A DNA stretch of 54,078 nucleotides, the filler included, from Jimgerdemannia flammicorona (taxonomy: Eukaryota): the NCBI GenBank assembly GCA_003990765.1. It is 3 parts of 3 records of this genome, joined end to end, with 100 filler letters (N's around TTAATTAATTAA, not from the genome) between each part and the next. Parts side by side here need not be neighbours in the genome. Positions count along the whole stretch, not along the records: positions 18,068 to 36,023 come from RBNJ01002348.1; 2 more parts are not named here. The stretch is one strand, 5' to 3'. Shown in pieces: positions 4,152 through 49,500 of the stretch; position 1 is the first letter of the stretch; each line of letters starts with the position of its first letter. The notes beneath the pieces were generated by a model that saw nothing but the letters and a program-made list of their open reading frames with translations, was not told the origin of the DNA and did not search any database. A program made the position numbers and the translations under genes.

Positions 4152-6180
4152 CCTACTGGTCCCAGGCCTTGATGAGCCTATCATCCATTGTGAGTGTGAC
4201 AACTATTGTGTCCAAGCTCTTCTCGAAGGCAATGGTGCCATAGTGGTCATGTGGTTGGAAGAGGATGGCTATGTTGGCCACAAACGGGACCCCGAAACCA
4301 TAGGTGAGATTGTACCAGACTCTGCCACTATCCTCCCAGGTTGGGTCCTTCCTTTCCGGGATATAAAATATTACTGGGGTGATATTGTTGTCTGTATATG
4401 TGGGTAGAGAAAGGTTACACCCAACATATTCTGATATGATGCAAGCATATGGTTGGGTGAACCCTTGGTCCAGGACCTCATACTGCCAGGCTATACTGGT
4501 GGATGCCTGCTCTTGGTCTAGCCCCAGGAGCCCCAGCTTGGAAACCTGTCAAAATGGATAGCAACCAGTCAGTCCTTTTTGCATATGGGAGGGCAGAAAC
4601 CCCCTAGGCTGCAGAAATCCCTTGGGCCACAGAAACCTCCCAGGCTGCAGCACCTCAAAAAAGCAGAGCTCCTCACCTCATATGACATACTAAATTGTGC
4701 CAAGAATGTACATACAGCCATACCAAGATCACCACTAAGCTGGCCTACCATATGCTCTACCAATCTGCTCAAAGAACCCCAGATCATAGCTGCTATCACT
4801 GTACAGGCCATGTTATACTCACATGTAGTTTGCTCTTCAATAGCACTTCTAAAGTTCCAGTAGGGGTACAGAATCTTGTGCATCCCTGGATTTATATCAA
4901 AAAGAGTATATCAGTGAAGAGTGTGATTTATCTGGGGAGGAGTAAAAAAAAAGATGAGTGTGGGGGATTTTGGAACTTCGGAACCCACCCTTTGCCAGTA
5001 TTGCAGTATACCCAATTTCCATCCAAACCCCCCCTCCTTGCTTTTTTCACTCCCTCTTTCCTGCTATCTGGTATTTGATATAATCCTTACAAATCTCATT
5101 AATGTGGCAGTGAAGCTTATCGCTGTAGAGGTTCCTTACCACCATCACAACCACCTCTCTATATTCATTAATAAAAATATGGTTCTCTTTATCATTGGTT
5201 ACTCCTGCTGGCCAATGGACCCCTTGGTCAAGAACAATTGGCTCTGATTCGAATGTAGACCCCCAAGCCTTGATAACAATGCTAGTATTGCTTATGCTGA
5301 ACATCTTGCCCTCAAATTTCTCTATTTGATCAGATACTAGACATGGTTGAACTTGGATAACTTTGAACTCTCCTTTCCAATAGAACTGAGCCCTGATCTG
5401 AGGGACTGAGATAAGTATGCAGATGGGTTGTGTACAGATGGGTTGCATGTAGGCAAGTTGCATATGAGTAGGTTGCATGTAGGTGTGGGTGTTTTTTAGG
5501 AGGAGACCATATAAAAAATGAAATTAAATAAAACACAGAGATGGGTATTTCAAAAAAAGAGCATGAGTGAGTAAGTGAGTAAGCTACATACCAATGAGTT
5601 GTATACTGACGAGTTGCATAAGTTGCACAAGATTGCTCATAAAGGCTTACTTCTGTTTCTTTTGAGACCTCTGCCATGTGATGTATTGACTCAACAGCTC
5701 AGCCACTAAAGGCATACCCTGCAATATCCTCCAATCTTTCTTTATCTTGACCAGATGTTGCAAATAAAGTTGGCAGATCTCACTGTAGAGCTGTGGTCCC
5801 TAAGAAGAGCATGAGATAAATTAGGTCATGCTAGGGAAATTTAAACAAGTAAAAAGTAGTGGCAGAAAAGAGCAACCTACATCTACTACTGGCTGCTCCA
5901 AAAAGGCTGCCATGTATATAGCTGTGAGGTCTGTGAATTCTGAGGTCCAAAGGGCCGCCATAAGTTGTTGTCAGAATTTACCCTCATCCCTGCTGTCACC
6001 ATCGCTATTGCCATCACCATCACCATTGCCATCACTACTGCCATTGCCCCTTTGGCTCTCAATGAGCAGCTTGTGTACTGTCCATATGAGAAAGAATCTA
6101 ACATTATCAGCAGAGAGTGTATTTCTACCTTGAATACTCTCTCTTTTGATGATTATTGCAGGGTGAAAAATTAGTAGACT
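4152..6180 (-). pseudogene. Decayed multi-exon gene of unknown function inside a TIR-bounded element
   Basis: Coding-like segments between GT/AG introns, e.g. NVRFFLIWTVHKLLIE, GPQLYSEICQLYLQHLVKIKK, IRAQFYWKGEFKVIQVQP, VWYNLTYGFGVPFVANIAILF. Scattered stops; no family recognised. Confidence 0.5.
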
Positions 6181-6359
6181 AGACCAACATACAAATTAAG
6201 GGCTGTTGTTTTGTTTGCTCGTGATGCAGTAGGAAAGAATAAAGAAAAAGAACAAAAAAAAGAGAGGGAACAAAGGAAAGGGTGATATGTATCACCAAAG
6301 TGTGGTAGGAAAAAAAAAACAAGAGCAAAATGAACAAAAGAAAGAGTGATGTCACCAAA

Positions 6360-6482
6360 GATTTCAATCTGGATGGATCATCTGGATCAGATCACAAGAC
6401 TAATCCAAGTTGATTCGAATCCATCATATGACAAATCTGAATCAAATCTCATTCAGATCAACTCCATTCATTCGGAGCACTA
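6360..6482 (-). mobile_element. Terminus of a DNA transposon inserted into hAT copy 2
   Basis: Minus-strand end TAGTGCTCCGAA followed by repeated ggat/gatc/gattc motifs. It directly abuts the DxW-motif region of the next transposase. Confidence 0.55.
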
Positions 6483-8379
6483 TACATAGATATCACCAAA
6501 TATGCATGCATTTCTTGGAATTAATACATATTGAATTTGTCAAAATTGGTAACTCAATTATATATTAATTGATTTTATTAAGCTGTTGGAATCTCATTCT
6601 GGTAAAAATCTTACTGGTACCTTTGGGAGCTGTGTTTGAGATTTTGGTATATAGATAAAGGTATGTAAAGAGTGAGCGAGCCTTTTAAAAGAGGTTTTCA
6701 AAAAGGTCAGATTTTTGAAAAAGGTCAGGTTTTCAAAAAAGGTCAGGTTTTCAAAAAAGATCAAAAGGTCAGGTTTTTGAAAAAGGTTATTTTTTTGAAT
6801 TTTAAAAAAGATTGAGTTTTTAAAAAGGTCAGGTTTTTAAAAAAGGTTGTGTTTTCTATAAAGATCAGGTTTTTGAAAAATAGTTATCTTACATTTTGAA
6901 TTATCGATTTTTCACTCTAGATATTAGCTATAACAACAGACAATACATCTAACAACAATATATTTTTTCAAATAATTGGAATGGAGTTTGATCAATAGCC
7001 TCAACTATCAGCTAATATAACATATATACTATATAGCTCATATTATTAATCTGGCTGTTCAAGCCTTTTTAATATATCTGAAGGCTGATGATGATAGAGA
7101 AATGATTTCAAGTCTTTGAATGAGCATTATCAAGATCCAGTCATTACTACAGTATCATGAGAGATTTATTGCACAATGTAAAGCCTATAGAATCAACAAT
7201 CCAAAGGAACTTATTTTAGATATTAAGACTCAGTGGAACTTAACATATTCAATGATTGAATGAGCCATCAAATTATCAGAGGTAATTATATTTAATTATA
7301 TTTAATTTGTTGGGTGATATGGGTCTATTATGCCTGAGTCTAATCTAATGAATTAATTTTTATTAATGGTCTTTAAATTTAATAGTTATATCTAATAAAT
7401 ATTTGTGACAATATATCATTGGAGATTATACTTGGTAGTTGCTAAAAGATATTATTTTGGTGTTAAAGAGTTTTCAATATGCAATAGATCTTGTAACTCA
7501 GCAAAAATATTCAACAATTTATTCTACTATTCCAATTTACAACTTTCTACTGAATATGTTAGAGAATAATAACCAAGTAATTCAAAATCATACAGTAGAA
7601 CCAGAAGAAACTGAAGAGCCAAATACTCTCATTCAACAGATACTAATAGTAGCTATTGATAAGTTAAAGAAATACTATTCAATGATAGATCATCTAATTT
7701 ATTATATTGGTACTAGTAAGTAAATATTTCAAAATTTGCTTGTTACTGAAGACTATTTTGAAATTTTGAACTACAAATTCATTTTGAAATTTATTTTATT
7801 CTTTAAATGAGAACTAATTCTTGATCCTAGGCTTAAACTATAATATTATTTAAACTATAATTAGAAAATCATTTGGATTGATGTAGCTGAAAAAACTGTT
7901 CATACAGTTTATAATAATAACTATACCCCTCTATCAGTTTATCATACAAGTTCTGAAGATCATACTGAAATAGGAGATGATATCAATATTGATGATATTG
8001 CTGAGCTATCTGAACATATACACAACAAAAGACAAAAATTGATAATAAATTCTAAAGAGAAGTTAGATAATTATTTAAAAAGTGAAACTGTTAAATTTCA
8101 ACCAGGAGTCAATACATTGTCTTGGTGGCAAGTGAGTTGGTCTAATTTGAAATATTATTCGAGTTTCTCTAATTTAATTTAATTCATTGGGAATATTAGG
8201 GCCATAGCAGAGATTATCCAAATCTAGCAAAAATGACATGTAACTATTTAGCTATCCCAGTAACAAGTACACCTATAGAGAGAGTTTTTTCAAGAGGTAA
8301 AGATCTTGTGGTACCTAAAAGAGGTACTTTAGACCCTGAAACTATTTGTGAATATATGTGTTTAAAGACATGGCAATAA
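6483..8379 (+). pseudogene. hAT transposase pseudogene (copy 2), 5'-truncated, with introns
   Basis: SPNMHAFLGIN, SHSGKNL, AHIINLAVQ, LDIKTQWNLT, LDPRLKL and YPNLAKM..NYLAIPVTSTPIERVFS. AT-rich with stop codons. Confidence 0.9.
6690..6880. repeat. ~18-bp minisatellite inside a transposase intron
   Basis: aaaaaggtcaggttttt repeated about 10 times. Confidence 0.9.
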
Positions 8380-8479
8380 GCTGGCTGATTCTGAAATCTA
8401 GAAATATAGTCAAAATATAGTTTGATCTCAACTAACTAAATATATCTATATATCATAATATTTCTAATATATATACTGC

Positions 8480-8980
8480 CATATTCAAAGCTCTCAGTTC
8501 ACTTGTCATTAGCAGGTATTAATTGTACTATTTAAAGCTCTCAGGGCTTGCTTCTGACCAAACCATATACAATTACCCTGTCTCAGTCTGCCAAACCTGT
8601 CACTAAATCCATTATAGCCAGTATACCCACCACCACCACAGACCAGTATATCCACTACCACACAGGCTTGCTGAGAGCTGTGGTGATACAATTAATGAGC
8701 GAGCCCTGAGAGCTTTAAATATAGTGCTAAGAGCATAAGCCAGAAGATAGTGCTGAGAGCCATAGTGATGCAATTAATAAGTGAGCCCTGAGAGCTTCAA
8801 ATATAGTACTAAGAGTATAAGTAAGCCAGAAGATAGCACTGAGAGCTTCATAAGCCATGGTGATGCAATTAATGCCAGCCAACAAGTGAGCCCCAAGAGC
8901 TTCAAATATTATAAGCCATATTCAAAGCTTGGGGCTTACTTATGAAGCTCTTGGGGGTTACTTGTTGGACTAGTATTAAA
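8480..8980. repeat. Direct and inverted subterminal repeats downstream of hAT copy 2
   Basis: gagccctgagagcttcaaatat occurs at least 3 times, with inverted copies at ~8480-8550 and ~8920. Confidence 0.75.
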
Positions 8981-9712
8981 AATATATAAATAAGCTGTCT
9001 AAGCTGCTATCTTTAATAAAAATAAAAATAAAATATATATTCAAACTTATCTTAACTACTTCTTAAATTATTTTGAAGACATGAACCATACCATTGGCAA
9101 GATATATACTTAGACAGTGACTGATAGAATTGATACTACTTAAGAAGAACATAGAAAGAAGAAGAAAATACTCACTAAAGTAATTGAGCAATTTATTTTA
9201 GCTATTGCTCCAATACTCCCTACTGCCCTCACTGTAAGAGGGTTGTGTTTTAAGGTAACTATTACATAGTTCTGGAAGGATTTCTGGAAGTTCTAGATGT
9301 TCTGGAAGACTGTTTTCTTATGGTCAAGATCAATTTCATATGGAGTATATCCTCTACACTTATTGATTTCAAGATCAGGTTGATGTCTCAACCAAAGTCC
9401 TTTTTTGGACTAGTTCTAGATGTTCAGGATTTTCCATATTTCAGGAAGTTCAAGAAACTAAGGCCAGCTTAGTTGAATTGATGTATTGCTGCAGACAATA
9501 CCCAATTAGGAAATTTCATGATGGGTTAGGAGTGGGACCTAATGGGGAGTGGATTTACTTAAGAGTGGTTTGTGGATTATTTAAATAGATTTATTTGCTA
9601 TTCATGATTTTGCTATACTAGGAGTAGTTATATCAAGGGGTATTGTGGGAAAGTGCTCAGAAGTTGTGTTCATATTATTCAAGTCTGAGATTCTGAGATC
9701 TGGGGGAGAGAG

Positions 9713-9908: not shown

Positions 9909-11007
9909 TTAGACACTGTCTAGGTAGTCTTCAATGACATTACCATCGATGACATCATCTCTGATGAAGTAGTCATCTAGGAAAAGTGGTTTGTGGATTA
10001 CTTCTCCTTGTTCACTAAGGTAATAATACATTGGAACTTCATCACCATCCCACAGAATAGCATCATCTGCCTTATATGCTGGGTAAGGTGTTGGTTGGGT
10101 AGAAGAGAGGTGTATTGTCTTTGCTCTCATCAGATTCACTATCTGTATACCTTCTGTAGATTACAGTACTATGAGTTGCGGGATTGTAGTAAGCTGGTGG
10201 CTGTGGTTTATGTCGCTCATACTCGGGTAGTGGAGTGATTGGTTTAATCTCGAGGGTTGTCTGGAGGTATAGGTTATATTCTCCAGTTTCTTCATTATAG
10301 TTGAAGTAATTAGGGGTGAATGTAAGTTGGTATTCGTGCCAGTGGTCATTGTCCCAATAAGTCTTGTATGCTGTTATGAATTGTTGTAAGTTCATTGGTA
10401 AGATTGGTAGTGTGATTAGGGTTGGCAGGGATCCTTGGCTTGAGGTCATGTCAGCATCAGAGGGATCATTGTCTTCTGCTTTATCTTTGTTGAAGTGGAT
10501 TATATCGTAGATGTCCTTCATGGTATATCCAACTTGGGGTATTTGCAGGATATGATCATTGAGGTGTGGAAAGGTTCTGTCTGTGGTTTTGATGTACTTG
10601 AGGTACTTGTGGTTGAGTTCTTGTATCATATTATTGATTTGGCCATAGGACAGAGTAACAATCATTTCAGCTGTAGTAACTTGGAGGTGGGGAATAACAG
10701 TGCTATACTCGTAGAAGAGTTCTCAGTATTTGTGGGCAATGAGTTTCTAGTGTTGAGACATCTGGGTAATGTCTGTATCATGGTGGTATTCAACCATGTC
10801 TTCTAGGAGGTGGCTGATCTGGTAGTAGCTTGAGATTTATCCAATTCGGTGGGCCTCATTGAGCATGTTTAGGGTGTTCTATTGGGCTTCCACAAAATAG
10901 AGGGGTGCCAGGCTATGGATATTCATGAGGGGCAGAGGGAGAGTGGCTTGGTTGATAATGGCATTCCAAATGTCAGCATGGATACAGGTGTAGATCTTGG
11001 TGGTCAT
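9909..11007 (-). pseudogene. LTR(U3)-embedded ORF, ~366 codons, unknown product
   Basis: ATG at 11007 (MTTKIYTCIHADIWNAII...) is in frame with the 197-aa ORF 10072-10665. Four stops are each one transition from a sense codon. One frameshift leads into ORF 9909-10139. Confidence 0.75.
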
Positions 11008-11109
11008 ATTTGTGTGTTTAGAAGTTATGGTTGTTGTTTATTTTGGTTATCTGGTTCAACGCATCTTGGTACTTGGTATATATGTATTTGGTCCTGATTG
11101 ATAAGATTC

Positions 11110-11181
11110 TATTTATATGAATCTTGTGTTCTGTAATTTCATGTTGACTCAGTTTGTGCACTGTGACTTCAGTTTGACTCA
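11110..11181 (-). promoter_or_regulatory. Second promoter-like cassette upstream of the LTR ORF
   Basis: TGACTCA at 11145-11151 and 11175-11181, then TATAAATA at 11117-11110, ~100 nt before ATG 11007. Confidence 0.5.
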
Positions 11182-11295
11182 GCTTCATGATCAAGCAGGT
11201 GATTTCCAGATTTGTTTGGAGGTCGTATGTGATTTCAGTGACTTGTTCAGAGGGTGACATGTGATTTTAGTGGCTTGGAGGTTGTGCACTTACAA

Positions 11296-11308
11296 CTCTC
11301 CCCTTCTT
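11296..11308 (-). other. Polypurine tract
   Basis: aagaaggggagag lies one base before TGTAAG of the 3' LTR. Confidence 0.85.
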
Positions 11309-11722
11309 AGCTTTTGATGTCCTCGTCAGGGCCTTCTAATTTTGTTCTAGTGTTGTTACATTATTTGGGAGGTCAAAAGTCTAGTAAAGTCCATTTTTCT
11401 CAGAAAGTAGCATGCTCATAGTATAGTTGCCTAATGCATTGGATTCATATGTTAAAGGGTTGTATGTTCAATGCCATGTGCTGGAAGTGATCCTGACATC
11501 ATTCACTGCTGGAGAATTTCCTCTAAGGAATCTTCTTAAATGTCTATACCTCATTTCCCACCAGTAGTACAGAGAGAATAGGCTTGCTTTCAGTTTTGCT
11601 ATTTTTCCAGAGGGTTGGTATTCTTGTCTTGTTTTGCTGAGTTCTTGGTCTAGTTTGTGATAATTATAATGTTTGGGAGGTATAATATATAGTATGTACT
11701 GATAGTATCAGAGTATTCAGAT

Positions 11723-26020: not shown

Positions 26021-26207
26021 GTTCGGATGGACACCATTAACTATTACTAGCCACGAGCTATAATTATATGAAATGAATATTTTTGGGCGGCGAATTGATG
26101 ATTGGGTAGCATACAGTGACATCATTTTCACGTGCTCGAATGATTGATAGCCAATGAGAGCATTAGCCACAATGTCTACACGTTGCCACCCAGCAGGCGA
26201 GTATATT

Positions 26208-29200
26208 ATGTCTGCCCAAGTTCAGCAACCATTACGTACCATTGATGGCCCCGAAGATGTGAAATCGGTGGAACACGGGGGTTTTCCACCTAAAGGCGCC
26301 GAGGAAGAGGGCAGGAGCGAGGAGGCAGAAGAAGAGGAAGAAGAGGAAGAGGAAGAGGAAGAAATGGAGGGGGAGGAAGAGGACGAGGAAGAGGACGACG
26401 ATGAGGAAGAGGAGCCCAAATTGCGATACCAGCGCGTGGGTGCCGACGTGACTGAGCTATTGAAGAAGGATGCTGCATCGGTGATGACTGTGTCTGATCG
26501 ATTTGTGGTGAGTATTAGATAGAATCGTGACGACAGAACCGTAGACGTGGACAGCAGAGTAACCTTATCTCACACATAGGTTCTGGGCACCCACAATGGC
26601 GCGTTGCACATTCTCGATTTCGAGGGAAATACCATTAAGAAGTTTGTGAAACACTCTGCGACCGTCAACGATGTCTCCATTGACGAGGCTGGAGAGTTCG
26701 TCGCGAGCGCTTCGGACGACGGTAAATAGAAAGATATGTTTCTTCAAAGTCAATCAATCGTTCCGTTCTTACCCGCTCATCAAGCCTTAATACCTTTCCG
26801 CCACTGTAATATTTTCTTAGGCAAAGTCAACATCCATAGTCTCTACGATGCAGAAACCATCACGTTCAACTACCGCCGACCGGTTAAGTGTGTTGCCCTT
26901 GATCCTGGATATAGCCGCAAAAGTACTAAGCAAGTTGTATCAGGTGGGATGGCAGAACAGCTGGTGCTAAACGAAAAAGGTGAGCTTTGATCCCTCCAAG
27001 TTTCCAAGTTCTCCGCTACTCGGGGGGGGTTGGTTGGTTCAAAATAGCGTCATTTGACTACTTAACTTCTTCCCTCCATATGCTACTATCTCCAGGCTGG
27101 CAAGGTGAGCTTTGATCCCTCCAAATTTCCAAGTTCTTTGCTACTCGGGGGGTTGGTTGGTTCAAAATAGCGTCATTTGACTACTTAACTTCTTCCCTCC
27201 ATATGCTACTATCTCCAGGCTGGCTTGGCAATAGAGACACCGTTCTCCATTCCAACGAGGGTCCAATCCGTGCCCTGAAATGGCGTGGCAACTTTATTGC
27301 TTGGGCTAACGACGTCGGCGTCAAAATCCAAGATACTATCGCAAATCAGCGGATAACGTTCATCGACCGGCCTGCAGGAAGTCCGAGAGCAGACTTGTAT
27401 CGGTGCCATTTAGTTTGGCGGAACGACACGACACTTTTGATCGCGTGGGCGGATACTGTGAAAGTCGCAGTTGTGAAGGTGAGATCCAAAGCTTACGTGC
27501 CTTGTGATAGGGTCAATTGAAAAAACTTTGCTAATACTCATAACCTTCATAGGATAAGCCAAGATTAGAACAGCAGTCCAACCTCCCCAATCATTATGTT
27601 GAGATCGTCAGCATGTACGTCTTCTAATTTAGCGAGGGAAGCATGCTTAGCTTACCTTATGGACTAATAACATTATGAACTAATAATACGTTATAATTTT
27701 ATTACACTTAAAATAGGTTCCAGACGGAGTACATCGTATGTGGCATATGTCCCTTCAATGACATGTATATCTTACTAGCATACCTTGTGGATGAATTGGA
27801 AGAGGAGGAGGATACAAATGATCCAAATGATCCAAATGAACAAAAAAGGAAGGTGAGGACGTTCTCGAGTCTCTTTTCTTCTCCGCGGTCTTGCGGCTCA
27901 GTTTGTATATCTTAGGATAGAATACTCTTCACTTCAGCTTGACGTTACTTTGATCACCCCGGTCATGCCGCCTCATTTTATTTCTTCCTTCTTTAGCTTG
28001 CCAAACGCCCCGAACTCCGCATTATCGATTCTTACAACGAAGAAGTCTCCAACGACGTGCTATCCCTGCATGGATATTCGCACTATCAAGCTAGTGATTA
28101 TATGTTCGATTATCTCCCAACGGAGGATATGTTTTACGTCGTGAGTCCGAAAGATTTGGTGGCGGCCAAACCCCGCGATATTGACGACCACATCCAATGG
28201 CTGCTCGAACGAACGCGATATGAGGAGGCATTGCAGGCCGCTCAAGAAGCATTGCCATGGGGTGGCAGCAAGCGATACAACGTAGGAGAGCTTGGTCAGA
28301 AGTATCTGAGTTGGCTGGTCGAAAAGGGTAAGGTTACTACCAGATGTTGGCATCGTCCTGCGATTTATGTTGTTACGGAGAACACATCACACATAAAAGT
28401 TGTATAAAGAGCTGGCATGGAAAAAAAAAAAAAAAAAAAAACCTAGAAACGACATATTCATGCTTTGTTTTCTGCATTTTTCATCCGACTCAATATCTGA
28501 TCAGGTCAATTTGCCAAAGCTGCAGAGACCTGTCCGAAGGTTCTCAACTCCGATGCCCAGCTGTGGGAATCTTGGGTATTTAGATTCGTGGAACTAAGGG
28601 AACTTCAGGTGGGCCTGATCGGAGGAGGATATACCTGCACACACATCATGATTGCTGGAACATACATTCCTGTTAGTCACCTATTAGTTCGATCGAATTG
28701 ACTTTTAATTGTCATTTTAAATATTGTAGGCCATCACGCCGTACATCCCTACCAAGGAACCCCGGCTGAGTAACACAGTTTACGAGATTGTACTGGCGTG
28801 GTTCTTGATGAATGATCACAAGGTAAGCGATGGTCGTGTTATCTATGGGTTTGGTGCTCCGTTGAACCGACACAGAACTGAATATCAGTAAAAATGTGGC
28901 AGACACTACTGACGACGATCAAGACGTGGCCACCGAAGCTTTACGATGTGCAAAATATCATTGTAGCTGTGGAAGATGCCTTGAGCAAAGACAAGGACGA
29001 AGAAATATTGTTGGAATGCCTGGCGGAACTGTATGTATATTTAACCTCGATTACGAGATCTCACTCCGATTGTAACTGCTTTATTCGGCGCATGGAAGAA
29101 CAGATCACCACCAGCCACCATGTTCCTCAATATTTACATTCGAACGCGCGATCTACTTGTTTTATCTCACTACTTGTTTTATCTCAATACAGCTATTTAC

Positions 29201-30461
29201 ACGATCATCAAGTCGCCAAGGCGATCGAATACAACCTCCGTCTGCGACGTCCTAATGTGTTTGATCTGATCCGCACCCACAACATGTTTGCGGCGGTCAA
29301 GGACAAAGCGATGCTGCTTATGGAATTTGATGAGTATTTGCTGAAGAAGGAGCGGGAGAAGGAGAAAGAGACGAAAATCACATCCGAGTTGGAAGAAGAG
29401 AAAGAACAAGACGAGTCGAAAAAAGTGGCGATAGGGGAGAAAGAGTGGAAGTCGGAGAAAGAAATAGAGGCGCAAAAGGAGAAGGAGAGAGAGGCGCAAA
29501 AGGAGAGGGAGAAAGATGCGCGAAGAGCAACGGGGATGCCGGCGGTGCAGTTATTGGCGAAGAATACGGAGGCCATTCTAGTGAGTTCTTGTGTTTTGTG
29601 CTCGTTTTGTTTGACGCCGGTATCTGAAGTTTTTGACTGATGGAAGAGGATTGGCTTGTGGCTGGGTTGAGAATTCGAACCGACTGTCAATTTCATGTTT
29701 TTGCTATCATTTACGCAAAGCCCGACCGCGTTGTTCCACAACTGCGGAGAAACCGCCGTTTCCTTCACACCTATCTTGATGCGTTATTCGATGAGGATCC
29801 GCATCTTGGCCAAGACTTCCATGACTTGCAGGTGTGTATCAAGCCTCCTTCCCCTCATGTGTACAGCTTTTTCGGGTGTGAAATTCATATGAAAGCAAGC
29901 TGATGCAATTCATTTCGTCCCTCGATATAGGTAGAACTGTATGCCGAGTTCGACTATCCGAAATTACAGGAATTCCTGAGGGCAAGCAACTATTATTCAC
30001 TTGAAAAGGTATGGGGACACGTCATCTGACCTTATTGGAGACTACGCACTGTGATCTTAATTGCCCTCGTTTTGACAGATCTGTTGTTCGGTCTACTTTC
30101 TACGAATTGCAGGCATATAAGATTTGTGAGCAACGAGAACTTGTTCCTGAAATGGTCTTCATGTTAGGCCGGATGGGCGACAATAAACGTGCTCTAATGT
30201 TGATCATCGAGAAGCTTCGAGACGTGAAGCGGGTATGTTGGCGGCTGCTCATAGTTTACATATCAGGAGTTGTGCTGTGTACACGGAGTATCAAAACAGG
30301 CTTAATGGTTTTATGCAAATGCATTGACACTGTCAGTTTCTGTATGTTTGACTCCAATTAGGCAATCGAGTTTGCACAGGAGCAGGACGACAATGTTCTT
30401 TGGGATGATTTATTGATGTATTCTAGGGACAAGCCGCGTAAGTCGGCGTCAAATCTTTATT

Positions 30462-30495
<34 letters not shown>

Positions 30496-31511
30496 GTCAA
30501 TGATGCTTGCTCATTAATCCCCTCGATCACAATTGTTTAACGTCATCGGTTGCATTTCTGTAGCGTTCATCAAGGGTCTGCTCGAAAATGTCGGTACGAA
30601 TATCGATCCTATTCGTGTGATAAAAACCGTTCCAGACGATCTGGAGATCCCAGGCCTGAAGCAGTCGTTGATTAAGATTTTGCAGGACTACAATCTACAG
30701 GTACGTTGTCGATTTATGGAACAATAGATTACGGTATACAACAATACGGGGTTTACCCCTTGGCCTATTTTCTAATACAACCACCACCACCATCGATCTA
30801 TTTCAGATGTCCTTGCGAGAAGGATGTCAAAAGATCCTTGTGAGTGACAGCGTGCAATTGGCGGACCGGATGCACCGAAATCAAAAGAGGGGCATATCAT
30901 GTTCGGGTTAGCACGGTTTCGATTCCCTTTTAGTCTGTGAACTTCTTTGCGTGGTTTTATGAACCGAACGTCTAATTCTGGAAGGGCTCGCAATATTCAC
31001 ATTAGATGATATGACTTGTGCGAAATGCCAAAACCCCGTTTTTGATGAAGGTATGTCGAGATATTATTGACCTTTGTGATTTTGTATCACCGTCTTATCC
31101 TTAAAGACCTAATTCCCGTTATGTACGCATAAAACAGAAAACGCAAAAACCACCATCTTGTTCTTTTGCCGGCACATCTTCCACGAGGACTGTTTCTTCG
31201 ATAACAATGTACCCTTGATACCCGAACAATTGACCGCCGCCACCATGTCAGCGAAGGTTAATCATGCAACATTCCTCCGCTCGGCTCGGGTCATGAAGTG
31301 CCCGATTTGCCAGGAACACGACGAGAAAGGGAGTGGATTAATCGGCCGGAAAATGGAGAGGCGGTTGCCAGCGAGAATAGCGTCACCTAGATCTCCTAGT
31401 ATTCGAAGCTTCGGAAGCACGAAGGGTGCGCCCTCGTTCAGCGGTAGTGGAAGGATGGATGTTTTGGATGACGACATACCTCCTATTGTGCCATTGAGGA
31501 TCGATCGGTGA
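26208..31511 (+). CDS. VPS41: HOPS complex subunit Vps41 (multi-exon)
   Basis: Acidic N-terminus then EEPKLRYQR, WD-like region (LGTHNG, ASASDDG, IAWANDVGVKI), VVSPKDLV.AKPRD.DDHIQWL, clathrin-repeat region (EMVFMLGRMG) and a C-terminal RING-H2 (FFCRHIFHEDC...CPIC). An alternative ATG lies at 26172. Confidence 0.96.
26977..27224 (+). repeat. Tandem duplication of an entire VPS41 intron plus 9 exonic nt
   Basis: Introns 26980-27095 and 27105-27218 differ by 3 substitutions and a G-run of 8 versus 6. Confidence 0.95.
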
Positions 31512-36023: not shown

Positions 36024-36123
36024 NNNNNNNNNNNNNNNNNNNNNNNNNNNNNNNNNNNNNNNNNNNNTTAATTAATTAANNNNNNNNNNNNNNNNNNNNN
36101 NNNNNNNNNNNNNNNNNNNNNNN
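36024..36123. other. Assembly gap with artificial six-frame-stop linker
   Basis: N44-TTAATTAATTAA-N44. Confidence 0.97.
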
Positions 36124-41314: not shown

Positions 41315-44300
41315 AGTAACATTCAGGTGACATAAGGCTCAGACAATACTTTCTACAATGTTTTTGATAAAAGACAATTAGTAACATAGACAGCAATGAA
41401 TATACTAGTGAGTATGTCAGCCAGGGGGGCAGCAGTGTCTTCAACTGGCAGTATATAGAGAGGAGGAGAAGTAATGGTTTGGAAATACTAAAGCCTTCTA
41501 TAGTAGGCCATGGTACTGGTGGCAGAGAAAGAGACAGATTGAGGCAATGAGGAGAGGAGAGGACAACTTTTGTAGATAAGGTCAAGATGGAGAGAATGAT
41601 ATCTGGTCTAGATAGTTGGCTGGACCTGGGGAAGGCATCAACAGCTACTGTTGAGGGACAGGAAGAGGTCACCTTGGAAGAGTTGGGTAGTAGGGAAGGG
41701 GGGGGAGTAGAGGCTGGAGATATGACTGCTGATGGAGCTGTAACTGGAGATCTGAAAAAAAATCTAGATGTGATGGTGGTTGACAGTTCAGAACAGGGGG
41801 TGGGCATGAGGCCCAGGGACCTAGTAGATAGTGTGATGGATTTGGTATCAGCACCATTACTCAAGAAATCAAGATCAGAATTTGCTGTCACATTGTGTTT
41901 CTGGGGCTTGGCAGTAACTGCAAGAATGATCTTAGGGCCGATGGTACAAAAGGTAAAGGAGGCAGCTTTGATGAAGTTCTTAAAGAAGAAGGAAGGAGTT
42001 GAGGTCAGGTTCAAGAAAGAGGTGTTATTGTTGGAGACCATGAAGAAAGGGGTAATAGTGGGTAGAGTAGTGGTCCCTATGGCCAGATGCATATGCTGGG
42101 ACCCCTGAGTGGTACAGTTGATGGTACTGGATCTTTCTATGATGTCAAGAGAGAGGGCCAGAGAGTTGATTATAGAACCAGTCAAGGAGTATGGGGAGAT
42201 TATAAACATCAGGTTCAGAGTCTGGGAGAGTACTGAGCTCTGGACTAGTGACATCAACATCTGGGTGAGGCTGGCTAGAAAGGAGAATATAGGAAAGATA
42301 AGGGACTGGCCAGCATCTCTTAAGTAGGGACTAGTGGAGTATAAGGTCTCACAGGTGAAAGGAATACCAGAAGAGGAGGAGGATTTGCTGGAGGCTCTTA
42401 AGGATCTGGTAGGAGAGGTTGAGAAGAGAAGATTGGCTTAGAAGGAGTATGAAGCCAAGATGGTGGTGGAAATAGTAGATGACAAAAGGATCAGGATGGA
42501 CCAGATAACCTGGGAGAAGATGCAAGAGAGATGAATTCAGAAGGAGCTATTGGAGAAGTTGGGAGGTAGTAGGGTAGATAGCAGTACAGGAAAAGGGGGG
42601 TACAGGACTGTAGAAGAGTGTCTGGGCTGGGGAGCACAGAATGGCCTAAGGTAGGGCCTAGGGGAGACTGAGTGAGAAGAGACAGAGTAATATGGAGGCA
42701 GATATAGAAATGAGTGAGGAAGTACAACCTTAGTATAGTGTTCCAGATAGGGCAGGGGGTGAGAAAGAACTACTAGATGTATCCAAGGAGGAATAGGATG
42801 AGTCAGTGAGGAGGAGCACTTTAGTGGACCCAGAGATGGGGGTTGAGAGAGTTGCTCAGGGTGTTGCAGAGATGGTTGATAAGGAAAAGTAGCTGTGGAA
42901 GACTCTGAAGGGGGTAACAGTAGAGGAGCTAGGGAGAGAGGACTTCTGGGTTATAAAAGATAAGCATTAGGAGAAAATTCTTCATGGTGAGGAGGTACCA
43001 AGGAAAGTTAGAAATGAGATTCTGGTGGTACTCTTGGAATCAGTTAAATACTAAGTAGATGATCAGTAGGAGGAGGAACTCTAAGTAATTGTGAATGACC
43101 AGGCAGTATACTTGTGGAATTTGAGGAAGGGTTAGAGAAGTGGAGAGTAGTCTGCATGGATTATTAGGTGGAAATGGAGGTAGTGGATAGAGCAGAGTGT
43201 CAAAATATCTTGGAGGCATTGAATACTCAGGCTGTAGTAAAAGGTGATCTAGAAGCAGAGCAGTACTTGGATTTGGCTAAAGATGAGATGAGTATGGAAT
43301 ACTAGGCTGGGTTCTCAACATCAATCATTATTCAATATGAATAGTATAACTAGAATCTTCTCTTTGAATATAAATGGATTAAGGAGTATAGCTTAGTAAA
43401 GGTATATTTTTAGTTGGCTCAAGAGCCTGGATGCAGATTTCTTCTTATTACAGGATATGCAATATAAGGTGGATGTGAACTCACAGAATTGGAGAAGAGA
43501 ATGGGAGGGGGCAGCATTGTGGACTGGGCAGGTGGGTATTCTAATTAGAAAGGGGATGGAGGACATTGGTGATGTTGGACATTGGGGGAGCAGATTGGTA
43601 TAGAGAGCATAGAAGAGGCCTGGATGGAGTCCTTTGACCATTGGATCATATTATTGCCTGGTAGAGAGGGGGGAATGTATAAATTGGATCAGAAATTTGA
43701 GAGAGGCTGGTGTTATGAGTGAGGTGGGAATTGACTGCCTAGGAGGTGATTTCAATATAGTACAGAATAGTGTGGTGGATAGGACTAATGGTGGGAGAGA
43801 AATGAGGGACAGAAGTGGTGGATTGGATGATTGGATGGAGATGGAGAGGTTGAGTTTCTTAGTAGACTCAGAGAGACAGTTTTGGAAGGATCATTGAATT
43901 TATACTCATTGGATGGCAGGGCTGGGCTCCAGAATTGACTGAATATTGATGGCAGAGTATTGGAGAGTGGATGTCTGAGTGGAGCTGGAGGTAGTTTGGT
44001 GCCCTTGGTCAGATCACTGGAGTCTGATAGAGAGGGGGAGGTTTGGGGGAAGTGGAGATAGGCCTGGATATTGGCAGCTGAATTCCTCTTTATTGAAGGA
44101 TAGTTCTTTATGAGCAGACTGGGAGATAGAAGTTGTTGGGAAAATTGACAGATGGTGGGAGCAGGAAATGATGATTGGGGATCACTAGCAGAGGCTGAAA
44201 TGGAGTGCTCAGAGATACTAGAGAGAGGCAGAGAAAGGAAGAAGTGCTCAGTAGTGGCAGAGAGTGCAATGGGCTTCATAGTGATTGGCAGTGCTCCTGG

Positions 44301-46544
44301 GTAGATGGGTGGGGATACTTGAGGATGAGAAGGTGGCTGACTGGTATATTCTACAAATCCAAAAGGAAGTTGATGAACTTAAGGAGATATTACAAATAGA
44401 GAAAGAGGTTAAGTTGAAGGAGATGGTGGCAAGATTGTGGTGGCAAGGGTTGGAGGAGGGAGAGAGATCCACTAGGTTTTTATCACAGTTACTCCAAGTG
44501 TAGAGAACTAAACAGTAGTGGGATGGTATCTTAAGTAAGAATAGAGAGATGGTGGTAGAGACTCCTATGATTCTGGGATTGCTGAGGATATACTGGAGGA
44601 ACTTATGGAGTGAGAAAGAAGGGGGTAAGGATGCCCTGGCATTAAGTATCAACTAGAGAATTGGTATCCAGACCCTGTATTGGGCCTGAGAATGCTGGGG
44701 GAGCCAGTGAGGGGAGAGGAAGTGTGCAAGGTACTGGCTGCAACAAGTAAGAGAACTGCTCTGAGAGAAAATAGACTGCCCTGGGATTTTTGGAAGAAGA
44801 TGGCTGGGGTGGCAGTGGCTCTGGAGGAGATGATAGTAATATATAATAAGGTGCTTCAATCTGGAGCTTGGATTGGGAGCTAGCATCTAGAGCTGGTCTC
44901 TTTACTCTATAAGGATAAGGAGAGAAGGAAAGATTGGAAGAATTGGTGACCAATTATGCTTCTCAACATAGACTGCAAGCTGGTGATAAAGATCTTGATA
45001 ACTAGGCTGTAGGGGATCACTCAGCAGATACTAGAAGTAGAATAGTAGAGATTTGTTAGTGGCCAGTTGATCTGAGATAGTACTGCCTGGGTCTATGGAG
45101 TAATTGAGGAGGCTCAGACTGCTGGGGTGGATGGTTGGTTGGTATTCCTGGATCAGAAGAAGGTGTATGATAGAGTGAGGAGAGTCTGGCTAGAGAGAGT
45201 ATTGAAATAGATGAAGGTTTCCCCAGAGTTCAGAAGGGCATTAATCAGTCTATTGGAAGACAGTCAAGCAGTACTAGTAGTGAATAGATACAGGGGTGTG
45301 ACCTTTTCACTAGGACATAGAGTGCTATAAGGAGACCCTTTGTCACCCATCCTTTATACCCTTTCCTTAGAGCCCCTATTAGATAAGATCTGGTATTGAA
45401 TTGGGGGTTTGGATATTTTGGGGATTAATTGAAAGATAGGGGTATTTGCCAATGATATGGTGATTGGACTGGGTTCATTGGAGGATGTGGAGGAACTGAG
45501 AAGGACAGTGGAATGGTATGAGAGTGGCTCAGATGCTAGGCTCAATTGGTATAAGTATGAGACCCTGGTGTTAGGTAATGGCATAGTTGGTGGAGATATA
45601 ATTGGGATGATGGTTCCAGCAAGAGAATCAGTTCAATACTTGGAGATATACTTTTTGGTGTATGGGTCCCTTCTGCCCTATATATGGTGGGAACAGCAGC
45701 TCTTAGTGTGGGGAAATGTGCTCTTGAAGTGGGGTGGTTCTTCGCAGAAAGGGTGATGGTACTAAATGTATATTGGCTGTTAAAGTTGTAGTATGTGGGG
45801 TATCATCTGGACTTTCCAGCATGGGTAGTTAGGTGACTTCTAAAGATGGCAAGATCATGGATCTGAGCTGGGCAGTAAAGTCAGATAAGATGAGAGGTTC
45901 TGACCTAGTCTGTTGACAGAGATGGATTAGGCCTGATAGACTTTACTAAATACCTTCATTGTCTGAGAGTGTGGTGGCTAAAAAGAGTGAGTGAATTGAG
46001 AGGCCAGGAGTGGGTTTCTCTCATACAGAGAGTATGGAAAACCTGATATTTCCCTCATAGAGTAACTGGCAATCTGCTTACAATGGTGGCTCTGGATAGG
46101 AGTAAGAGGATGCAATATAGGGGTTTTTGGTAGAGAGTAGTAGATAGTATAAGGAAAATTGGACTTTAGTAGCAGAGTGATGAAGAAGAGGAGATCTGAG
46201 GATCATAGATATAGAGATAAGATAGATTACTACTGGGTGGTATATTGGTGGAGGATTTCTAGCTTAACAATGGAATAGATTATATGTAGGACTTAGAGGA
46301 AGACCTGTGGCCTGAAGTGTGGCAGAGGGTAGAGATTGGTAAGAAGTGGGACTAGAATAGTCTTTGGCCTTAGAGTAAGCAAGTAATGTAGTGGCTTCCC
46401 CCCAAGTTCTGGATAGTATAGTGGAGGTTTTTAAGACAGAATGTGATACTGAACTATTAGTCTGGACATTTGGTAGCAGATGGTATATTTGAATATAAGA
46501 AATGTATAGATATTGGTCAGAAATAGATCACACCTTTCTCCTAT
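41315..46544 (+). mobile_element. L1/Tx1-like LINE copy A (ORF1 ~41390-43305; ORF2 from 43337), decayed, cut near the C-terminal Cys/His motif
   Basis: APE endonuclease (SLNINGLR, GGDFN, RID). RT (LPWDFWK, PIMLLN.D.K, FLDQKKVYD, GDPLSPILY, FANDM). Confidence 0.92.
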
Positions 46545-49500
46545 ATAATTCACATTACACAAACTTCAAGCAATGGTTTTCAACATAGCTCAGAGAGAAG
46601 GTATTATAAAAATATCATCAAGTAAGAGTTCTGATAGGTGTGCTGGGTCAGGTGGACCTGGGGCTTTCAGCTGGCAGCATGTGGGGAGAGGTTATAGATT
46701 GGGAATGGGGGCTTTTGGAGAGTCAAAGGGTGGCAAAGGCTCTGGAGGAGGACTAGTATCTGGTAGATCTGAGGGAAGACCTGGTCTCTTCAGCTTTGCC
46801 AACAAGGTGAAGGCAAGTAGATGGTCTGCTGGAACCAGGGCTGGTGCTGCTGATGGGAAAGGCAAGGCTAGTATCAGAAGGGAGAGTGGCCCTCAGGGGA
46901 GAGAGGTAAGTATAGGGGCTGGAGGGGCTGTAGCTGGGGGTATGACTGTTGATGGGAATGTGATGAGGGATCAGAAAAAAAAATGAGATGTGATAGCTGA
47001 TGGCCAGGTGGGGCAGGGGCTCCCAATGCAGAAGGGGGACCTGGCAGATAGTGTAATGGGGCTGGTGGTGGCCCCATTGCTCAAGAAGTCAATTTCGGAG
47101 TTTGTGACTACCTTGTACTTTTGGGGCTTGACAGTAATAGCGAGGATAGTTCTGGGGCTTATTTTGAAGCAAGTAGCTAGAGTAATCTCAGTGAAGTTCC
47201 TGAAGGGTCTGGAGGGGGTTGAGGTGGGCTTTGGAGGTGGGCCTATTAGATGAGGCCCTGAAGACTGGAGTAGTGGTTGAGGAAGTGGTGGTCCCCATGA
47301 TGCAGTGCTTGAGATAGGACCCCAGGGTGGTGCAGCTTCTGGTGAGGGGGGTACTAATGGTGATGAAGGAGGAGACTAGGAGGAGGGTGGAGGAGGTAAT
47401 GGTAGAGTATAGTGATGTAGTAGACATTGGCTTCCAGATGTAGGAGGAGACCACATTCAGGATAGGTGATGTCAATGTCAGGATTTGGCTGGCAGAGAAG
47501 GAGGCCACAGAGAAGACAAGTAACTGGTCCTTGGTGCTAATGTGGGGGGCTTTTGTCTATAAGGTGTCGAGAGTGAAAGAGAGTGAAGAAGAGGAGGAGG
47601 ACTTGTTGGAGACTCTGAAGGAGTTGAGTGATGTAGTTGAGAGGAGGGCAAAGGCCTGGAGAGTGTTTGAGAAGTTGACATATCTGGAGATTGTGGATGG
47701 GAAGCATATTCATACTGACAAGAGGCAGTGGGAGTGGGCACAGGGGTACAGGAGGCAGAGGGAGCTATTGGTGAGTATAAAAGGAGAGGTGAAGAAGAAG
47801 GCAGATGGGGCTGAGGTGTCTGGGGGTGTCAAAGCCAGTATCTGGGCTAGTAAAGGAGAAGGAGAGATGGAGGCAAGCAAGGAAGGAGCTGGGAAGGTAT
47901 TGAGCAAGAACCCCTATACAGATGGCACATTTGAGGTCTGGGAGCAGGAATTGGATGCCACTCTCCCCCCTCTTGTCAGGAGGGGCCTGGCTGTGAAGAG
48001 AGGGATGACAGCAGATATGCTGATGCAGGGGGCCCAGTGAGTGCACTTTGGGGTCCCTGATGTGGTGAAAGGGGGCCAGGTGGTGGTAGTTGGTGAGGAT
48101 GAGCTGGTGGATGTCCCTGAGGAGGAGTGGGATGAGGCTGCTAGTGTAGGAGCTGATACCACAATGTTGGATGTAGGGCAACCAGAGACCATGAGAGAGA
48201 AGGAGGTAGGGAATCTGCTGTAGATGAGTAAGGTGATGGATAATCTTACAGCTGAGGAGTTGGGAGAGGTGGACCTACATGTGATGCCTGAGGAGCATTG
48301 GGCATGGATTCTGTATAGTAATGGAGTGGTGGAGATACTGAAGGTAGAGATTCTGGTGATTTTCATGGAGGAGGAGGAATATGAGATTGATAAGATGAGG
48401 GAAGAGAAGCTAGCAGTTGTTGCTGGTGAGTGGGCTGCCTACTGTTGGGCAGAGCATCATAGTTTGCAACTCTGGCAGGAGGCCTGTCTGAAGTATTGTA
48501 AGGACTTTGAGGAGAGAGAGAATGGGGTGATGGCTGAACTTCTGAAAGGGTTGGAGGTACAGAAAGCTGAGAAGAAAGAACTAGTGGCAGAATGTGACTT
48601 GGACTTGGCACAGAAGAAGTTAAATGTGGATTTGTAGAGGATGTATATGAGATATAACATTATTTCTTATAAACAGTACAACTAACATTTTCTCTTTGAA
48701 TGTGAATGGGTTAAGGAGATTTGGACAGTGTAGGACCATTTTTACTTGGCTTAAGAGATTGGAGGCTGATCTATTTTTACTATAGGACATATGGTGTGAG
48801 AGTGAAAAAGATCAAGTGGAGTGGACTAGAGAATGGGGAGGGGCTACTGCTTGGAATGGCAAAGTGGCAATTCTGGTGAGGAAGAGTAGAGGGGACTTGG
48901 GTAGAATTCAGAGTTGGGGGGACCATTTGATCTGGGGAGAATGATACCAACCTGGATAGGAATTAGTGAGGGTTGACTTCTGCTACTACCCTGCAGTTAG
49001 GGATGAGTAGATTGAGTAGATTAGAGATCTGTTGGAGGAGGGTGTTTTCTTGGAGGAAGGTGTTGATATTCTGAGAGGTGACTTTAATATGGTGTGAGAT
49101 CCTCAGCTAGATAGAACTGATAGAGGAAGGAGTGCAGGGGGGAGGAGTGGTGGACTGGATAAGTGGGAGGAGGTGGAGAATCTTAGCTCCTTAGGAGATA
49201 TGGGCAGAATACAGTGGGGTGAAAGAAGGGTCTATACATACTGGGTGAATGGATTGGGTATAAGAATTGACTGGATTCTGATGGCCAAGTGTTGGGGTGC
49301 TGATGTTTGAAGAACTCTGGAGGTGGAGTGGTGTCCTTGGTCTGATCACTAGGGGCTATTGGAGCAGAGACAGTTTGGGGGAAGTGGAGATGGACCTGGA
49401 CATTAGTGCCTTAACTCCTCCCTGCTGGTCAAGAAGAGATTGTGGGACTCATAGGTGGAGGATGTCCAAGTGAAGATTACCACCTGGATATGTGAGGGAT

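Follow-up and report, generated by a model that had tools for sequence, protein, structure and literature searches.

Duplication of an existing intron within its own gene is a described route to additional introns. In 24 fungi, Collemare, van der Burgt and de Wit (2013) recorded 82 same-gene duplicated (SGD) introns, half of which are segmental duplications that also copied exon sequence on either side; the species table of that survey holds no Mucoromycota, and flank sizes, microexons and RNA validation are absent from the available portion of its main text (PMC3609843). Arabidopsis TOUCH3 (Knowles and McLysaght 2006) and the cases of Gao and Lynch (2009), as cited by Ma (2016; PMC4974935), likewise involve an entire intron duplicated together with its flanks, and the citing passage terms such events multiplication of an existing intron rather than creation. 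In the tandem genomic duplication model (Rogers 1989), with ATP2A1 (Hellsten 2011) and potato RdRp (Ma 2016) as examples, a tandem duplication of DNA yields an extra intron that draws on splice signals already present; one or more of the splice sites are made anew from exon sequence, and in the classic form the protein stays the same (PMC4974935, PMC3443670). In the passages available, both PMC4974935 and Yenerall and Zhou (2012; PMC3443670) leave plain intron duplications out of their counts, and the former describes recent intron gains with an identifiable source as rare. Introners are a further class of near-identical introns with complete splice signals, present as many dispersed copies in unrelated genes (PMC3609843, PMC9860276, as far as the parts consulted describe them). 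Among fungal microexons, the 20-nt exon of Trichoderma Xlr2 is a very short internal exon that is genus-conserved and glucose-regulated, according to the accessible part of PMC11121469.

The window analysed here, a stretch of 54,078 nucleotides of Jimgerdemannia flammicorona DNA, joins three contigs of about 18 kb each, separated by N spacers at 17968-18067 and 36024-36123; the order of features across contigs is therefore meaningless. The intron pair lies within one of them, contig C2348, with no N nearby, and in a gene whose sequence identifies it as VPS41, encoding a subunit of HOPS, by its PF23411 propeller and by homology along the protein. An ATG at 26172 opens a frame of 478 aa across the first eight exons, tblastn of an Endogone model (P0001) spans 26415-31430 with blocks through P0001 residue 1098, and both exons that flank the pair score above the Pfam cut-off for PF23411, the N-terminal Vps41 beta-propeller.

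Tandem Repeats Finder reports a repeat at 26977-27224 with a period of 123, 2.0 copies, 96% matches and a score of 459. Direct parsing resolves it into two units (Table 1), and the structure given in the preliminary description, in which 3 nt of exon, a whole intron and 6 nt of exon were duplicated with splice sites and frame kept, was confirmed. Parsing also reproduced the divergence claimed there, namely three substitutions between intron A and intron B (27000/27125, 27013/27138 and 27014/27139) and, within a run of G, an indel of 2 nt. All three substitutions are transitions with G or C in copy A and A or T in copy B, and two are adjacent, a pattern to be read with the small number of sites in mind. 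The unit junction at 27101/27102 is blunt, without microhomology. The 9 nt of the microexon consist of a copied 6-nt start of the downstream exon followed by a copied 3-nt end of the upstream exon. With the microexon the translation reads EKG-WQG-WLG, three residues longer, and stays open; direct parsing gives a stop or frame shift when intron A or intron B is retained. The repeat locus is single-copy in the genome assembly (G000; 231 Mb, 35,354 contigs), and no further copy of the intron was found there beyond the adjacent pair (E <= 1, in a search that scores the best candidates only).

Table 1. Features of the VPS41 intron pair and of the other intron and short-exon sites kept from the genome scan; positions refer to the window unless another stretch is named.
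Feature	Position	Strand	Description
VPS41 gene (HOPS subunit)	26172..31430	+	approximate extent, from ATG to last homology block; 3' end unrefined
VPS41 upstream exon	26821..26979	+	ends ...EK-G, phase 1; last 3 nt part of unit 1
Duplication unit 1	26977..27101	+	3 nt exon + intron A + 6 nt exon = 125 nt
Intron A	26980..27095	+	116 nt, GT..AG; branch-point-like 5-mers at -42 and -34; spliced out in RNA contigs
Microexon (spacer)	27096..27104	+	9 nt, phase 1-1; RNA joint 26980->27217 with 6 letters between
Duplication unit 2	27102..27224	+	3 nt exon + intron B + 6 nt exon = 123 nt
Intron B	27105..27218	+	114 nt, GT..AG; branch-point and acceptor region as in intron A
VPS41 downstream exon	27219..27478	+	starts G-WLGNRD; beta-propeller blades
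Older intron pair, contig C2348	introns 19202-19036 (167 nt) and 19026-18870 (157 nt)	-	69% identical, 9-nt spacer; site 18861-19211
L073 array	G000:C30:25001-35000, 7625-9279	-	seven A-rich spacers (six of 12 nt, one of 6-7 nt), related introns of ~300 nt, ~70% identity
L068 array	G000:C25:25001-35000, 4639-9089	-	at least 13 spacers of 31 nt, related intron-like units of ~130-145 nt

To follow the splicing of this region, assembled contigs of four RNA runs (X1 to X4) out of eight listed were used, X5 to X8 (share 0.07-0.09) being left out; such contigs drop rare variants and minor isoforms, and joints were listed down to a threshold of 2%. The long contigs of X1 and X2 have five other VPS41 introns spliced at GT..AG and are thus cDNA. 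The joint that includes the microexon occurs in X1 (depth 383), X2 (194) and X3 (3.4), while X4 carries the same arrangement as a loose end. Inclusion, one of the two outcomes that the preliminary description proposed to distinguish with junction reads over 27096-27104, is accordingly found in all four runs, in the main contig at full contig depth in X1 and X2, and at the 2% threshold no skipping joint is listed in the contigs of any of them. The same description held that skipping restores the ancestral protein. This holds on paper, where the skip form EKG-WLG is open, in frame and bounded by canonical GT..AG over 239 nt, but it has no counterpart among the joints listed for the four runs. 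A GC-type donor within the microexon (27100) was rejected as a candidate, the RNA joints making no use of it. One more contig of X2, 153 nt long (123 + 30) and at depth 3.8, covers 27072-27224 without a difference from the window and takes in an intron's 3' end, then the microexon and the complete intron B. Both its start and its end coincide exactly with the point at which the repeat copies branch, with 30 letters left of the junction against the 31-letter rule of the tool. The 5' part of intron A, with its distinguishing bases, is covered in none of the runs.

Comparison with other VPS41 proteins gives the direction of the change. The nearest named homologue in two homologue searches is the Endogone sp. 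VPS41 at 83%, and neither search returned a closer protein. Spacing at the junction was examined in 193 homologues and could be measured in 190, three being too short. The uninserted, skip-form spacing is present in 175 of the 190, each of the 175 with Trp at that place, and the other 15 differ in other ways; the W-x-G repeat motif [KR]GW.GW occurs in 0 of 193, the nearest homologue included. The insertion is derived, since the uninserted spacing prevails and the motif is absent from the homologues, and with both introns spliced this confirms the earlier claim that the duplication added an intron and a microexon to an ancestral state. In the Endogone model P0001, additional residues stand at the position of the window's intron 1 and at the microexon junction, which would be intron remnants at shared positions; such protein models suggest that a single intron occupied the VPS41 junction before the duplication. 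Four fungal VPS41 models (P0122, P0192, P0020 and P0001) carry 2-8 extra residues exactly at the EK-G/W junction, and most such residues in other fungi probably come from wrongly modelled splicing at a shared intron. The four extra residues of P0122, from Mortierella sp., resemble the following WLGN and could represent an independent duplication at the same hairpin. Elsewhere in the gene, a 9-nt coding tandem repeat of 3.2 copies (27811-27839) lies in a VPS41 exon and encodes an acidic loop; run X1 is one unit short in it, a length polymorphism.

The VPS41 event is best read as a same-gene intron duplication by segmental (tandem) duplication, a known class of which it is an unusually clean and transcript-backed member. 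It shares with the fungal SGD introns two near-identical introns in one gene and duplicated exon flanks: the adjacent introns are 96% identical and of the same phase, the flanks comprise 3 nt upstream and 6 nt downstream, and both copies are spliced. As far as the survey's main text goes (PMC3609843), VPS41 differs in that its flanks total only 9 nt and in that inclusion is seen in several genotypes. TOUCH3 resembles it in the duplication of an entire intron with exon sequence on both sides, but consists of two internal duplications, as summarised in PMC4974935, whereas VPS41 contains one minimal unit that yields a three-codon exon in a single-copy conserved gene. Unlike the Rogers-type cases, both of its splice sites are copies of the parent's, no duplicated exonic AGGT is involved, and the protein gains three amino acids. 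Introner identity was rejected for the VPS41 intron: introners would number many in unrelated genes, whereas among the best candidates scored in G000 (E <= 1) only the two adjacent copies were found. The microexon shares its very short length and its splicing with that of Xlr2, but it is young and of readable origin, and no sign of its regulation was seen. The term "intron birth" used in the preliminary description is thus half retained: a second functional intron and a microexon were gained, but the published class is intron multiplication, in which no new splice sites arise (PMC4974935, PMC3609843). In a search of mostly open literature and main texts, no paper on whole-intron duplication producing a microexon was found, the SGD supplement lists being a place where such cases may be held, and the passages available from PMC7138796 and PMC3514964 contain no matching case.

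We consider it very likely, with a probability of roughly 0.88, that a DNA-level tandem duplication of about 125 bp gave VPS41 its second intron and 9-nt exon with all splice signals inherited, as a likely near-neutral change that spread before the genotypes diverged. The duplicated segment would consist of the entire ancestral phase-1 intron with 3 nt of exon before it and 6 nt after it, and would thereby have carried a donor with three exonic bases, a branch point, a pyrimidine tract and an acceptor together with the exon bases around it. With this full set of splice signals, both new junctions would have been complete when they formed. Intron definition is generally how short fungal introns are recognised. 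Each of the introns of 114-116 nt would then probably be recognised separately, which favours inclusion over the 239-nt skip. The event presumably survived because the 9 nt keep the frame, add no stop and fall at the tip of a surface hairpin. Special targeting is not needed to account for this survival, since 166 of 495 combinations of flanks up to 30 nt, about a third, are in frame and free of stops. The blunt junction may fit end-joining repair somewhat better than homology-based slippage. Most likely, the gain was tolerated as near-neutral and spread prior to the divergence of the sampled genotypes.

Two other accounts dispute the event itself or its mechanism. If two alleles of one intron had been assembled in tandem, the 9 bases in the mRNA would be a plain exonic duplication; the assembly is fragmented (35,354 contigs), the copies diverge at an allele-like level, and all support comes from RNA runs, which leave the unique bases of intron A uncovered. 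The 153-nt X2 contig nevertheless runs from the 3' end of one intron through the 9 nt into the 5' start of an intron, a sequence absent from any single-intron allele, which argues against tandem mis-assembly. X2 moreover differs from the window at two exonic SNPs, the junction lacks microhomology, and near-identical tandem pairs are rare in the genome (1 in 800 kb), so that we regard an artefact as extremely improbable. An RNA-mediated gain, by reverse splicing or intron transposition, by an introner, or by template switching in reverse transcription, would agree with breakpoints no more than 6 nt from the splice sites and with the recurrence of similar units of intron and tiny exon in the genome. 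Survival bias alone predicts breakpoints close to splice sites, however, and reverse splicing would insert an intron without extra coding bases, while VPS41 carries duplicated exon bases from both flanks. The 9 nt were not a contiguous genomic target site in an intron-containing ancestor, and, unlike an introner, the intron was found nowhere else in G000. Intron transposition by reverse splicing is therefore unlikely, the 9 added coding nt coming from both flanks rather than leaving a precise insertion, and we give RNA-mediated routes as a whole very little credence.

The duplication itself may also be real but much older, with gene conversion keeping the adjacent copies alike. The intron copies differ at 3/123 sites, or 2.4% (95% range 0.5-7.1%), all differences fall within the first 50 nt and the 3' 66 nt are identical, a clustering that allows for gene conversion and an older date. 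The genome has older arrays of a similar kind, and neither homologue search returned a congeneric sequence that would bracket the age. Against conversion, the clustering, assessed post hoc, is weak (p about 0.03-0.08), constraint on branch point and acceptor could explain it, other intron-microexon pairs have diverged to 69-87%, which indicates that homogenisation is not the rule here, and the nearest homologue lacks the motif; an old, converted pair thus appears unlikely, though less so than an artefact or an RNA-mediated origin. Relative to the window, X1 differs at 28094 and by a 9-nt deletion at 27815, X2 at 26456 and 26468, and X3 and X4 at 27313, so that three SNP patterns, of which X1 or X2 may derive from the assembled material, all contain the microexon. 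The runs show 1-2 differences from the window in 1,187 exonic bases (0.08-0.17%), a rough comparison as exons are constrained. With the microexon in three SNP patterns and 2.4% divergence between the copies, the gain is most likely older than those genotypes, and the picture of an intron gain "caught in the act" and "very recent" finds no support in that wording; the gain is most likely evolutionarily recent yet shared and established. Finally, the change could be buffered, most transcripts skipping the microexon or using it as a regulated alternative exon while the ancestral protein persists. The canonical, in-frame skip would permit this, and minor variants are lost from assembled contigs, but in X1 and X2 it is the main contig, at its full depth, that contains the microexon, the other two runs are consistent with this, and skip joints are absent from the listing at 2%, which makes buffering very improbable.

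To place the pair among similar arrangements in the same genome, a background sample of 800 kb was scanned (80 of 80 stretches). Tandem repeats with a period of at least 50 and at least 95% identity numbered one in the 800 kb, and that one lacks the intron layout; given this single repeat, the intron pair is not a product of chance and the assembly is not full of such pairs. A strict adjacent-intron scan gave 273 matches in 39 bins (35 from sampled stretches, 4 from the window), and a looser version with 1,650 matches was discarded. From the strict set, two arrays (L068 and L073) and two window sites were kept by eye, a selection made without shuffle control, annotation or RNA; the remaining bins were dropped by eye as ordinary repeats, and L049 (96%, 111 bp) and L065 had no intron-microexon layout. 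The scan for adjacent near-identical introns suggested in the preliminary description gave arrays in 2 of 80 sampled stretches, none at 90% identity or above. At the older pair on contig C2348, related 9-mers stand before and after the spacer, each followed by a GTAT donor-like site, and the site lies downstream of the 5' exon of a gene (19805-19473) with a Crinkler N-terminal domain (PF20147, E 8e-21). The L073 array looks like an old microexon array. From their sequence, duplications of an intron with a short exon look recurrent in this genome, and the VPS41 pair is the youngest among the cases found here and the one in a single-copy conserved gene. These cases could reflect a recurrent, splice-site-guided process of the lineage that copies an intron with a few exon bases, VPS41 being the youngest two-copy seed of microexon arrays, but we hold this to be improbable. 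In other parts of the window, GC skew is strong at 42001-52000 (+0.40 to +0.53 over 10 kb) and weaker at 10001-18000 (+0.20 to +0.27); these stretches are probably long mobile-element frames.

The consequence for the protein was considered on an AlphaFold model of a homologue lacking the insertion (P0035). In it, the propeller strands 259-265 and 268-275 are linked by a two-residue turn, W266-L267, and the three added residues are predicted to extend the tip of this beta-hairpin beside the conserved Trp, where tolerance of an insertion would be likeliest. An alignment of 47 homologues shows no variation at W266 or G268, and a PDB sequence search matched only yeast Vps41 (7ZU0 chain F), in which W-L-G is kept. 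This conservation means that the hairpin matters, so neutrality is not obvious and an effect is possible. A fold search with the P0035 proxy model matched HOPS/CORVET, IFT-A and WD40 chains and returned nothing on the hairpin. Human T146 presumably lies about a dozen residues upstream of the hairpin. The Vps41 propeller binds Ypt7 in yeast and Arl8b in human, and the available text of the two reports assigns no role to this hairpin (PMC9592082, PMC4432227).

To our knowledge, the origin of an individual microexon can seldom be traced. In VPS41 the parent, the copy, the breakpoints and the spliced product are all readable, in several genotypes and in a single-copy conserved gene. Duplication of a whole intron can by itself give an efficiently included 9-nt exon, without a new splice-site mutation, and the result is a natural three-residue insertion at a conserved VPS41 hairpin that is testable in yeast. 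The locus is a clean example and not a new principle, unless the breakpoints of such duplications prove to be splice-site-guided genome-wide. If such a process were true, the genome would hold a time series of micro-exon gene birth, from the 9-nt exons of this contig to the 12-nt spacers of L073 and the 31-nt spacers of L068, and this kind of remodelling would have reached even a hairpin that is conserved in a conserved trafficking protein, possibly altering a membrane or GTPase contact.
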